Of a stretch of 64,000 nucleotides of DNA, positions 36,409 to 42,973 are shown piece after piece. The stretch covers positions 64,001-128,000 of IMG/VR virus record IMGVR_UViG_3300020469_000011, one strand, 5' to 3'. Within the stretch, counting starts at the first letter, position 1. Each line of letters begins with the position of its first letter. Below the pieces are notes generated by a model, which worked only from the letters and a program-made list of their open reading frames with translations, had not been told where the DNA came from and did not search any database. The position numbers were made by a program, and so were the translations under genes. The DNA is from a virus.

Positions 36409-36437
36409 TTGACTTTTTTATCTGTATCTGTTATACT
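36409..36437 (+). promoter_or_regulatory. Sigma70-type early promoter of hsp20 (late CTAAATA motif also at 36452-36458)
   Basis: TTGACT-N17-TATACT with extended TG. Confidence 0.75.
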
Positions 36438-36568: not shown

Positions 36569-37054
36569 ATGTTTCTTACACGTTATTCAAGTAACGACTG
36601 GGATAAAATTTTTAGACATTCTGTAGATTTGTTTGATCGAATGGAAATGATTCTTGATGATCAACAGTTCTCAAATTCGTTATCACATACGTTTCCCCCT
36701 CATAATATACGCAAAAAAGATAATTCTTATCTAATTGAAATGGCTGTTGCTGGTTTCAATAAAGACGAAATTGATATTTTTAAGGAAAAGAATCATCTTG
36801 TCATTGAGGGTAAAAAGGAAGAAAAGAATGAAGAAGGTTTTGTGTATCGTGGAATTGCAAATCGTTCTTTTAAGAAATCATTTGCTCTAAGTGAGGACAT
36901 GAAAGTTCTTGCTGCAGATATGAGAGATGGTATGTTGTATGTTGGTCTAGAACATGAAATTCCAGAAAAAGATAAACCTCAAAAAATTGTTATTGGTGAC
37001 CGTGCTGACACTATGTCTTCTGTAATTAATAGTGTTAAAAAATTAGTCGCTTAA
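36569..37054 (+). CDS. hsp20: Small heat-shock protein Hsp20 (IbpA-like)
   Basis: FPPHNI..YLIEMAVAGF..LVIEG..YRGIANRSFKKSFAL..ADMRDGML. Confidence 0.95.
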   Translation: MFLTRYSSNDWDKIFRHSVDLFDRMEMILDDQQFSNSLSHTFPPHNIRKKDNSYLIEMAVAGFNKDEIDIFKEKNHLVIEGKKEEKNEEGFVYRGIANRSFKKSFALSEDMKVLAADMRDGMLYVGLEHEIPEKDKPQKIVIGDRADTMSSVINSVKKLVA

Positions 37055-37064
37055 TATAAAGTAT

Positions 37065-37086
37065 GGTGGTTGTGAAAGCAGCCACC
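37065..37086 (+). terminator. GAAA-tetraloop hairpin after hsp20 (terminator or processing site)
   Basis: GGTGGTTGT-GAAA-GCAGCCACC; no strong U-tract. Confidence 0.5.
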
Positions 37087-37097
37087 TATATATAAAA

Positions 37098-37173
37098 GCG
37101 AGAATAGCTCAATAAGGCAGAGTACAGTCTTACCAAGATTGTGGTGCAGGTTCAATTCCTGCTTCTCGCTCCA
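37098..37173 (+). tRNA. tRNA-Gly with anticodon ACC
   Basis: 76-nt cloverleaf: acceptor GCGAGAA/TTCTCGC, U73 then CCA; D stem GCTC/GAGT; anticodon stem CAGTC/GATTG with loop TT-ACC-AA; T arm GCAGG-TTCAATT-CCTGC. Confidence 0.9.
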
Positions 37174-37200: not shown

Positions 37201-37500
37201 ATGCAACCATACCCAATCCATCAACATTTTTATACCGCTCGGCGAGATTCTGAGCTTGTTAGGTATTTTAAAAATGAATATCGTTATGATTGGGAATTAA
37301 ATTATGTTAATTTCATGGAACGTGCGAAATCAGAAAAGTACAGTAAAACATTTAAAATATTGGTAAAAAAGTTTAAATTAATTATGAAAATCATGTTTGG
37401 TAATTATTCTGAAGAATACTTATTGAAAGTTAATGAAAAACAAATTTTTAAAGATTTATATGATTCTGAAAGAAAACAAAATTACCCTAGTTATGCGTAA
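37201..37500 (+). CDS. Hypothetical protein
   Basis: AGGAG SD preceded by a CA-rich leader. Confidence 0.7.
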   Translation: MQPYPIHQHFYTARRDSELVRYFKNEYRYDWELNYVNFMERAKSEKYSKTFKILVKKFKLIMKIMFGNYSEEYLLKVNEKQIFKDLYDSERKQNYPSYA

Positions 37501-41128: not shown

Positions 41129-41205
41129 GGGCCTCTAGCTCAATAGGTTAGAGCACCGCACTCATAATGCGTAGGTTCTCGGTTCAAGTCCGAGGGGGCC
41201 CACCA
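41129..41205 (+). tRNA. tRNA with CAT anticodon, most likely tRNA-Ile2 (lysidine, reads AUA)
   Basis: Acceptor GGGCCTC/GGGGCCC, A73 then CCA, loop CT-CAT-AA; body resembles bacterial Ile2 and lacks initiator features. Confidence 0.85.
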
Positions 41206-41242: not shown

Positions 41243-42973
41243 ATGAATAAATTACTTATCTTTGACTATGGAAGTCAGTATACACATTTGATTTCCAAGA
41301 GATTTAGAAAACTTGGTTACTACACTGAAATATGTCAACCCGATATAGATTTACAATTAATATCTGCTAACGGTATTATTTTATCTGGAGGTCCTGGAAG
41401 TACAAATGCAAATAATGATTTAAATACTAATATATTTGATTTGAATATTCCAATATTAGGTATATGTTATGGTCATCAGTTAATAGCTTCCTACTTCAAA
41501 GGCACAGTAAAATCAAATACTAATGTGGAATTTGGAAAAGCAAACCTAACAAAATGTGAAGATAGTCTTCTTTTTAAAAGATTACCAAATACATTTCAAG
41601 TTTGGATGAGTCATCATGATACTATAACTTCTTTACCTGAGCAGTTTAAAGTTATAGGTAAAACAGAAACTCCTTCTGCAATTGAGCATAAACATAAAAA
41701 GATCTATTCATTACAATTTCATCCAGAAGTTAATGATACAAACTTTGGTTCAATAATATTAGATAATTTTGCCAAAATATGTAACATTGAAAATAATTGG
41801 AATACTAAAAACTTTACTGAATCTAGTATTAAAAATATTAAAGAAGAAGTAAAAGACCGTAATGTACTCATGTTTCTGAGTGGAGGTGTAGATTCTAGTG
41901 TTGCATTTTCTTTACTCAACGAGTCTCTGGGGTCTGAACGTGTATTAGGTCTTTTTATAGATAACGGATTTTTAAGAACAAATGAAGCTAAAATAATTTT
42001 AGAAAAATACAATTCTTTAGGTTATGATAATATAATATTTCGTGACTATAGTATTAAATTTTTAGAAGCTATAAAAAATATTACAGACCCAGAAGAGAAG
42101 CGCAAGTCTGTAGGAGAAACTTTTCTAAAAGTTAGAGAAGAATTTTTAGATGAATTAAATTTAAATACTGATGATTGGTTATTGGGACAAGGTACTTTAT
42201 ATCCAGATATTATTGAATCGGGTGGTTCAAAAAATTCACATGTGATCAAATCACATCACAACAGAGTAGATGCTGTAAAAAAATATATTGATAAAGGTTT
42301 GATAATTGAACCGCTAAAGGAATTATATAAAGATGAAGTTCGTATTCTTGGAGCTTTATTAGGACTCCCAAAACAAATAGTACAAAGACATCCATTTCCA
42401 GGTCCAGGTCTTTCCATTAATGTAATTTGTTCTGATTCAATTTCTGAACAAACTAGTGAATTTTTACCAATAAAAAGTGTTGGTGTGCAAGGTGATCAAA
42501 GAACTTATAAATCTCCAAAGGTCATTCATAATAAAGCTGATTGGGATACATTAGAAAAATTAAGTATTGAACATACTAATAAGGTAGATGGGAGCAATAG
42601 AGTTGTTTTACATTTATCTAAAAGTGAAATTAAACATAATGGTTGGATTAGAAAAATTGCGTATTGCACAGAAGAAAGATTAAATATTCTCAGAAAAGCA
42701 GAAACTATAGTCTCTGAGAGTCTAGAAAAAAATAATTGGATGATAAAACTTTTTCAAGTATTAGTTATTCTTTTACCAATTAGTGAAAATGGGAAAAAAG
42801 AAAGTATTGTGATAAGACCAGTGGTATCAGAAGATGTGATGACTGCACAATTTGCTAAAATTGATTGGGATGTCATAGAAGAAATTGTAGATAAATTGTA
42901 TAAGATGCCGAATATAGATTCGGTCTTTTATGATATTACACATAAACCTCCAGCGACTTTTGGGTGGGAATAA
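41243..42973 (+). CDS. guaA: GMP synthase (glutamine-hydrolysing)
   Basis: DYGSQYT, LGICYGHQ, QFHPEV, LSGGVDSS, QGTLYPDIIES, IKSHHN, RHPFPGPGL, KPPATFGWE. Confidence 0.95.
   Translation: MNKLLIFDYGSQYTHLISKRFRKLGYYTEICQPDIDLQLISANGIILSGGPGSTNANNDLNTNIFDLNIPILGICYGHQLIASYFKGTVKSNTNVEFGKANLTKCEDSLLFKRLPNTFQVWMSHHDTITSLPEQFKVIGKTETPSAIEHKHKKIYSLQFHPEVNDTNFGSIILDNFAKICNIENNWNTKNFTESSIKNIKEEVKDRNVLMFLSGGVDSSVAFSLLNESLGSERVLGLFIDNGFLRTNEAKIILEKYNSLGYDNIIFRDYSIKFLEAIKNITDPEEKRKSVGETFLKVREEFLDELNLNTDDWLLGQGTLYPDIIESGGSKNSHVIKSHHNRVDAVKKYIDKGLIIEPLKELYKDEVRILGALLGLPKQIVQRHPFPGPGLSINVICSDSISEQTSEFLPIKSVGVQGDQRTYKSPKVIHNKADWDTLEKLSIEHTNKVDGSNRVVLHLSKSEIKHNGWIRKIAYCTEERLNILRKAETIVSESLEKNNWMIKLFQVLVILLPISENGKKESIVIRPVVSEDVMTAQFAKIDWDVIEEIVDKLYKMPNIDSVFYDITHKPPATFGWE

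Follow-up and report, generated by a model that had tools for sequence, protein, structure and literature searches.

Transfer RNA genes encoded by bacteriophages are a kind of element that is already known, and glycine tRNAs are among those carried in the tRNA arrays of large phages. Phage T4 encodes tRNA-Gly(UCC), and further examples are the tRNA-Gly(gcc) of Bixzunavirus mycobacteriophage and the tRNA-Gly(tcc) of Aeromonas phage phiA8-29. The gene described here resembles these phage tRNA-Gly(GCC) and (UCC) genes in type, size, glycine identity elements and accessory setting in a large lytic phage, but differs from them in having A at position 34.

A glycine tRNA with the anticodon ACC has been described as the sole “universally absent” A34 tRNA of the four-fold codon boxes (bioRxiv 10.64898/2026.05.15.725136). 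The anticodon has been studied in engineered form in E. coli and human systems, where it was placed on glycine tRNA bodies of the GCC or CCC type, with, among others, a UUACCAA loop resembling the one in the E. coli GCC body, and showed a reading preference of U > C > G > A (Boren et al. 1993; Saint-Leger et al. 2016, PMC4928997; Raval et al. 2026, bioRxiv 10.64898/2026.05.15.725136). In these experiments GlyRS charges the E. coli tRNA-Gly(ACC), which stays unmodified and is active; its reading of GGU is strong and that of GGC weak (Boren 1993 cited in PMC11066159; bioRxiv 10.64898/2026.05.15.725136; PMC4928997), and it competes on GGA and GGG (PMC11066159; bioRxiv 10.64898/2026.05.15.725136; PMC4928997). 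The engineered form is functional, and its overexpression slows the growth of E. coli (bioRxiv 10.64898/2026.05.15.725136). Leu-AAG of the Lactobacillales and Thr-AGU of the Mollicutes are cellular tRNAs in which A34 likewise stands in place of G34, in a four-fold box and in AT-rich genomes with many U-ending codons. These serve other codon boxes, and Leu-AAG is inosine-modified, whereas Gly-ACC is reported to be unmodified. A search of the literature on phage tRNA-Gly(ACC) or phage A34 tRNAs found nothing, and the works that state the absence of the ACC form are silent on phages.

Here we show that an uncultured phage carries a real and structurally canonical glycine-type tRNA with an ACC anticodon. 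The engineered tRNAs are laboratory mutants whose natural counterpart has been called absent from all life, whereas this one is natural and phage-borne. The data also point to tRNA-Gly(ACC) as a recurrent and apparently undescribed class, in which it takes the place of tRNA-Gly(GCC) in AT-rich phages.

The phage in question is uncultured, marine and T4-like. Its genes include those for the baseplate wedge and hub, a DNA polymerase of the gp43 type (40-42% identical to cyanomyovirus polymerases), a helicase, ribonucleotide reductase, thymidylate synthase and Hsp20. Its IMG/VR record comprises 146,510 bp, is estimated to be 68% complete and has a GC content of 29.6%; the stretch analysed, referred to here as the window, consists of the 64,000 nucleotides at bases 64001-128000 of that record. 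Five tRNAs are found in the record (Asn GTT, Asp GTC, Arg TCT, Gly ACC and Met CAT), the ACC gene being the sole tRNA-Gly in these 146 kb at 68% completeness. ARAGORN places two of the five in the window, a tRNA-Gly(acc) at 37098-37173 (+), 76 nt long with an encoded CCA, and a tRNA-Met at 41129-41205. The tRNA-Gly starts 44 nt past the Hsp20 stop codon, beyond a hairpin, and ends 27 nt before a small open reading frame. The features of the locus are these:

36409..36437, plus strand: match to a sigma-70-like promoter (TTGACT-17-TATACT with TG) upstream of the Hsp20 gene, from a consensus scan only, in a region where such sites are no more numerous than in shuffled sequence and the scan is weak
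36569..37054, plus strand: Hsp20 gene, the upstream neighbour and synteny anchor (phrog_432, 1.4e-35; Pfam HSP20; 51-79% identity in relatives)
37065..37086, plus strand: 8-bp hairpin right after the Hsp20 stop, its position kept in relatives (sequence; alignment with five relatives)
37098..37173, plus strand: tRNA-Gly gene with ACC anticodon (ARAGORN, Rfam RF00005, sequence, fold z-score, anticodon-free neighbours)
37132..37134, plus strand: anticodon ACC (A34, C35, C36) in the loop TT-ACC-AA, with U32, U33, A37 and A38 around it (sequence; ARAGORN, gene position 35)
37201..37500, plus strand: 99-aa open reading frame, the downstream neighbour, with a CA-rich leader and an AGGAG ribosome-binding site (open reading frame list; alignment)

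The cloverleaf is complete. Rfam RF00005 matches 37098-37170 at 58.6 bits (cut-off 29; E 4.4e-10) over the full model (positions 1-71), with zero non-canonical pairs flagged, and all 21 of the 21 stem pairs are intact, as are the conserved tertiary positions. The acceptor stem (GCGAGAA/TTCTCGC) reads G1-C72, C2-G71 and G3-C70, followed by the discriminator T73; the D arm has the stem GCTC/GAGT and a 9-nt loop containing GG; the anticodon stem is CAGTC/GATTG, the variable loop has 4 nt and the T arm is GCAGG-TTCAATT-CCTGC. The predicted fold energy of -27.1 kcal/mol corresponds to a z-score of -3.9 against 200 shuffles. The first-pass annotation of this DNA, made from the sequence alone, had described an intact cloverleaf with glycine identity elements and ACC at 37132-37134, and ARAGORN, Rfam and the sequence agree with it on these points.

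Glycyl-tRNA synthetase (GlyRS) of the E. coli type recognises its substrates by U73, G1-C72, C2-G71, G3-C70, C35 and C36. Every one of these elements is present in the window tRNA, and when anticodons were removed from 1207 distinct phage tRNAs (187 Gly and 1020 others), the 25 nearest to it were all glycine tRNAs (25 of 25). Judged by its identity elements and body, the gene would thus count as a bacterial tRNA-Gly and a predicted GlyRS substrate. The loss of the elbow between G18-G19 and the T loop that, together with weak EF-Tu binding, marks staphylococcal-type non-proteinogenic tRNA-Gly is not seen here, as the D loop retains GG and the T loop reads TTCAATT; since the elbow is canonical (G18 G19, and TTC in the T loop), it offers no argument against ribosomal use.

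Relatives of the phage were collected in two ways, as 21 IMG/VR records found through the DNA polymerase (62-90% identity) and as 45 metagenome loci found through alignment of Hsp20. Gene order is conserved in every relative that covers the interval between Hsp20 and the gene orf92, and there was no tRNA at this site in any of the 21 polymerase-found loci or in 36 Hsp20-found loci; the relatives with the flanking genes kept and no tRNA here number about 40. The interval measures 401-426 nt in seven polymerase-derived loci and 486 nt here, and in an alignment with five relatives the 76-nt tRNA falls precisely in the space separating the hairpin from the CA-rich leader. Five larger relative records contained a tRNA-Met at most. 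As the relatives keep the flanking genes and lack the tRNA, the gain is private to this lineage, and the singleton is most simply explained as one gain there. For the same reason there is no orthologue that could confirm the ACC anticodon, and equally none that shows GCC or TCC.

Two further features of this neighbourhood bear on how it changes. The tRNA adjoins a fast-evolving gene, the 99-aa open reading frame, which has no Pfam or PHROG family match, is 30% identical to its counterpart in one relative (L006) and is undetectable in most others, unlike the far better conserved Hsp20 (58-79% identity) and orf92 (61-96%). Between the tRNA-Met and the DNA polymerase lies a gene of 576 aa resembling GMP synthase (41243-42973, plus strand; with the domains GATase, NAD_synthase and GMP_synt_C) that is absent from all fetched relatives, in which the tRNA-Met sits some 30-40 nt upstream of the polymerase gene; it represents a second lineage-specific insertion within the same 6-kb stretch as the tRNA-Gly. 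Separately, an Hsp20 that is 59% identical to that of the window was found on a 346-kb metagenome contig (L048, WLWF01000006.1), which is either a much larger relative of this phage group or a mis-join.

The tRNA itself has no close copy in GenBank phages or JGI metagenomes. In IMG/VR, an exact core pattern gave no close copy, and an acceptor-anchored pattern recovered only two unrelated glycine tRNAs. Among GTDB genomes there was again no close copy, the lone match being a Gly(GCC) of Blattabacterium that agrees at 58 of about 74 positions, and at that level of identity it was rejected as a donor. The nearest sequence overall is a phage Gly(GCC) (locus L213) at 82%, from a phage of 25% GC. 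The earlier description of the body as close to bacterial tRNA-Gly(GCC) therefore holds only in moderate form: the best match is indeed of the GCC type, but it comes from a phage, and the bacterial one is more distant.

The anticodon, on the other hand, is far from a unique oddity, as the first reading had taken it to be. A single narrow pattern (TAGCTCA, gap, TTACCAA, gap, GGTTCRANTCC) matched 45 other IMG/VR contigs, and ARAGORN called a tRNA-Gly(acc) in all 45, making ACC a recurrent phage isoacceptor. These contigs reduce to 18 distinct sequences with varied acceptor, anticodon and T stems. In an alignment of 18 distinct rows that includes the window tRNA (alignment A5), 99.5% of stem cells are paired and double-sided changes occur at 12 of the 21 pairs; the covariation score is 0.60, compared with 0.20 after shuffling (reached in 0 of 500 shuffles) and 0.08-0.17 with slid partners. 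Because TAGCTCA, TTACCAA and GGTTCRANTCC were set by the search pattern, those columns are invariant by construction, while the stems were free to vary and co-vary. The window tRNA has the features by which we define the class here: an intact Gly-ACC cloverleaf, a phage that is rich in AT and in GGT, and the absence of Gly(GCC) from its 68%-complete record. When five ACC tRNA families were compared with GenBank phages, no ACC form was found, and matches, where there were any, reached no more than 89% identity and had gcc, tcc or ccc as the anticodon. The same frame with TTGCCAA matched at least 120 IMG/VR contigs, so that ACC is a minority but no rarity among phage tRNA-Gly of this type.

The relationship between the two anticodons was followed on a tree of 19 ACC and 104 GCC sequences (the GCC ones from among the matches listed), built from 73 columns with position 34 masked, for which the numbers are rough. 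The ACC label requires 12 changes between ACC and GCC on this tree, of which at least seven are forced by well-supported branches, compared with 17.9 on average for shuffled labels; one ACC/GCC pair is identical outside position 34. Judged from these sequences, a single origin of phage ACC is excluded. The suggestion that the gene arose by a G34-to-A change gains from this, as G34/A34 switches do occur in phage tRNA-Gly, in one pair with position 34 as the only difference.

Several of the collected loci carry other unusual tRNAs. A tandem pair of tRNA-Gly(acc) occurs on L080 (3646-3798) and on six similar contigs (L081, L089, L097, L113, L118 and L121; 36-71 kb); in one copy an aberrant T loop (TGCGGCT) is combined with the loop ATACCAT, in the other the acceptor stem contains a G-G mismatch, and they may be diverging or non-standard glycine tRNAs. 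Other non-Arg A34 tRNAs were found among 167 IMG/VR loci (L077-L241) that had been chosen for their glycine tRNAs, namely Thr(agt) 10, Ser(act) 4, Ser(aga) 3, Leu(aag) 2, Cys(aca) 1 and His(atg) 1, so A34 in phages may extend more widely than glycine. L099 (2546-3447), a 110-kb phage contig, has about 20 tRNAs, among which Gly(acc) and Gly(tcc) adjoin Ser(aga) and a tRNA with a CTA anticodon (called Pyl) that is possibly an amber suppressor; the array also includes one tRNA-like call with an abnormal anticodon loop.

Where ACC is present, GCC is not. At the fetched loci, ACC occurs alone in 27 cases, together with TCC in 18 and together with GCC in 0, and no ACC gene is found at the GCC loci. 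A broader GCC pattern run over whole records detected the GCC form in 0 of 44 ACC records, among them a complete 369-kb phage, the same pattern having recovered the GCC gene in four of five GCC records used as a control. In both loci and whole records, ACC thus substitutes for GCC specifically and never for TCC. Cells present a different picture, in that 123 of 401 Bacteroidota genomes contained the frame when R was allowed at position 34, and all of the approximately 135 matches listed read TTGCCAA. The absence of Gly(ACC) from cells, which the first-pass annotation had stated, is in keeping with this result and with the literature.

Composition distinguishes the two groups as well. Median GC is 33.5% at ACC loci (range 29-44%) and 39.8% at GCC loci among the matches listed (Mann-Whitney p = 3e-7), and the median share of GGT among glycine codons is 50% and 41%, respectively, again with GCC loci from among the matches listed (p = 3e-5); the loci include families of related contigs, so these p-values overstate independence, and the association is correlative. 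In the phage studied here the glycine codons are GGT 47%, GGA 43%, GGC 7% and GGG 3%, which bears out the expectation that GGT would be very frequent, as it is the commonest of the four. There is no early or late signal in this usage, the GGT share being 46% in baseplate and tail genes and 50% in replication genes. The Asn GTT and Asp GTC tRNAs of the same phage keep G34 although 83-84% of those codons are T-ending; the retention of G34 in two-codon boxes fits a scheme in which A34 can be tolerated only if a misread codon of the box still means the same amino acid, as in a four-fold box.

Taken with the published decoding by ACC, the composition pattern leads us to read the window gene as a working decoder of GGU, and we consider it somewhat more probable than its opposite that A34 is left unmodified and pairs with GGU in Watson-Crick fashion. 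The host GlyRS would charge the tRNA, which would then serve on the ribosome with a perfect match at GGU and weak reading of the other GGN codons, and would fill the role that tRNA-Gly(GCC) holds in other phages. Its gene appears to have been gained by this lineage alone, through insertion downstream of the Hsp20 hairpin and ahead of the leader that belongs to the next open reading frame. The tRNA is probably cut from a read-through transcript: a terminator scan found no canonical terminator between Hsp20, the tRNA and the next gene, which makes such processing plausible; the hairpin, having no T run, would be a weak terminator at best, and the promoter match upstream of Hsp20 might give rise to a transcript that extends across the tRNA. 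Certain observations count against a decoder. In relatives without the tRNA, GGT makes up 42-60% of glycine codons, equal to or above the share in this phage, so the gene is accessory and dispensable and the codon bias predates it. The ACC gene is a singleton among the roughly 40 syntenic relatives, the GGT share is alike in structural and replication genes, and the engineered form carries a growth cost in E. coli.

Other explanations differ in what they make of the adenosine at position 34. It might be deaminated to inosine, by host TadA or by an unrecognised phage enzyme, so that one tRNA read GGU, GGC and GGA, codons that make up 97% of the glycine codons of this phage. All other widespread A34 tRNAs (Arg-ACG, and Leu-AAG in some Firmicutes) are inosine-modified according to the literature, and the loop shares U33-A34-C35 and A37-A38 with tRNA-Arg(ACG). 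Nevertheless, the Gly-tRNA(ACC) of E. coli is unmodified and a very poor ADAT substrate (PMC4928997; bioRxiv 10.64898/2026.05.15.725136), and Gly(TCC), which covers GGA and GGG, is also present at 18 ACC loci. The record (146 kb, 68% complete) yielded no deaminase of PF00383 or PF14437, and the 44 other ACC phage records yielded no TadA; PF14437 matches in five of those 44 were considered as TadA candidates and rejected, as they are dCMP deaminases (ComEB, phrog_174). The superwobble through inosine that the first-pass annotation had entertained finds no backing in these results and is, in our estimate, improbable. We give a similarly small chance to the idea that nothing adaptive is involved, that is, that a recently captured tRNA-Gly(GCC) underwent a neutral or mildly harmful G34A change, that the gene is decaying, or that the consensus is wrong at 37132. 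This idea would predict a singleton of which neither IMG/VR and the JGI metagenomes nor GTDB genomes and GenBank phages hold a close copy, and without which the relatives manage. Set against that are the intact state of all stem pairs and conserved tertiary positions and the body itself, whose 47% GC and G-U pairs suggest long adaptation to an AT-rich phage rather than a fresh capture. The presence of ACC in at least seven independent phage lineages, with compensatory changes in the stems, makes a chance error at 37132 improbable, and an assembly error there is unlikely.

Still other explanations remove the tRNA from ordinary decoding or see the altered base as a disguise. As a private carrier, the glycine-charged tRNA would feed a non-ribosomal transferase, for instance of the Mom type, and the odd anticodon would keep it out of translation. 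Such chemistry exists, since a Mom-type enzyme makes N6-carbamoylmethyl-adenine in phage DNA from Gly-tRNAGly; Mom accepts all isoacceptors as substrate and probably recognises the acceptor end (PMC13219725). A match to PF25680 (Mom) was found neither in the 68%-complete record nor in the 44 other ACC records, although the same profile detected the Mom of phage Mu at 2.8e-77; a phmmer search with Mu Mom gave no match, and the record at its 68% completeness has no match to PF00583 (GNAT) or PF13480 (Fem-like), nor is a Mom or other aminoacyl-transferase found near the tRNA, whose neighbours are Hsp20 and small open reading frames without a transferase domain. The elbow and T loop of the window tRNA are normal, and the ACC tRNAs of IMG/VR are members of ordinary tRNA arrays, next to Gly(TCC). 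A transferase partner could lie in the 32% of the genome that is missing, which keeps the carrier idea alive at a low level, as a quite improbable one. Lower still, and by analogy, we rank evasion of a host anticodon nuclease or toxin that targets tRNA-Gly(GCC), by which A34 might preserve GGY decoding. In phage T5, tRNAs whose anticodon loops are altered have been reported to escape defences directed at tRNAs, and the exclusive replacement of GCC, never of TCC, is in line with such escape. We know of no defence nuclease specific for tRNA-Gly(GCC), however, and came across none; a one-base change at position 34 in an otherwise unaltered loop would be a minimal disguise, and the association with AT-rich and GGT-rich genomes is predicted by codon matching and not by nuclease escape, which we regard as highly improbable here.

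From an evolutionary standpoint, the decoding of GGU by an unmodified A34 would extend to the whole class. AT-rich, GGU-rich phages would have switched their tRNA-Gly from G34 to A34 several times and then retained it. We hold it to be an even chance that phages have repeatedly evolved an unmodified-A34 Gly(ACC) and keep it under selection, replacing GCC in AT-rich phages and reading GGU, as a tRNA that would be affordable in a short lytic infection though purged from cells; the window tRNA would be one independent gain of this kind. Taken alone, as a lone copy in an uncultured phage, it is a modest exemplar and a weaker one than families that are conserved elsewhere, and the weight lies in the class. 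For annotation, the consequence is that a Gly-ACC call in a phage is not to be dismissed as an error. For the question in tRNA biology of why tRNA-Gly(ACC) is so generally avoided, natural, structurally intact and repeatedly evolved phage forms provide test material, bearing on the modification of A34, the range of GGN codons read, the cost in frameshifting and growth, and what a phage can afford as compared with a cell.
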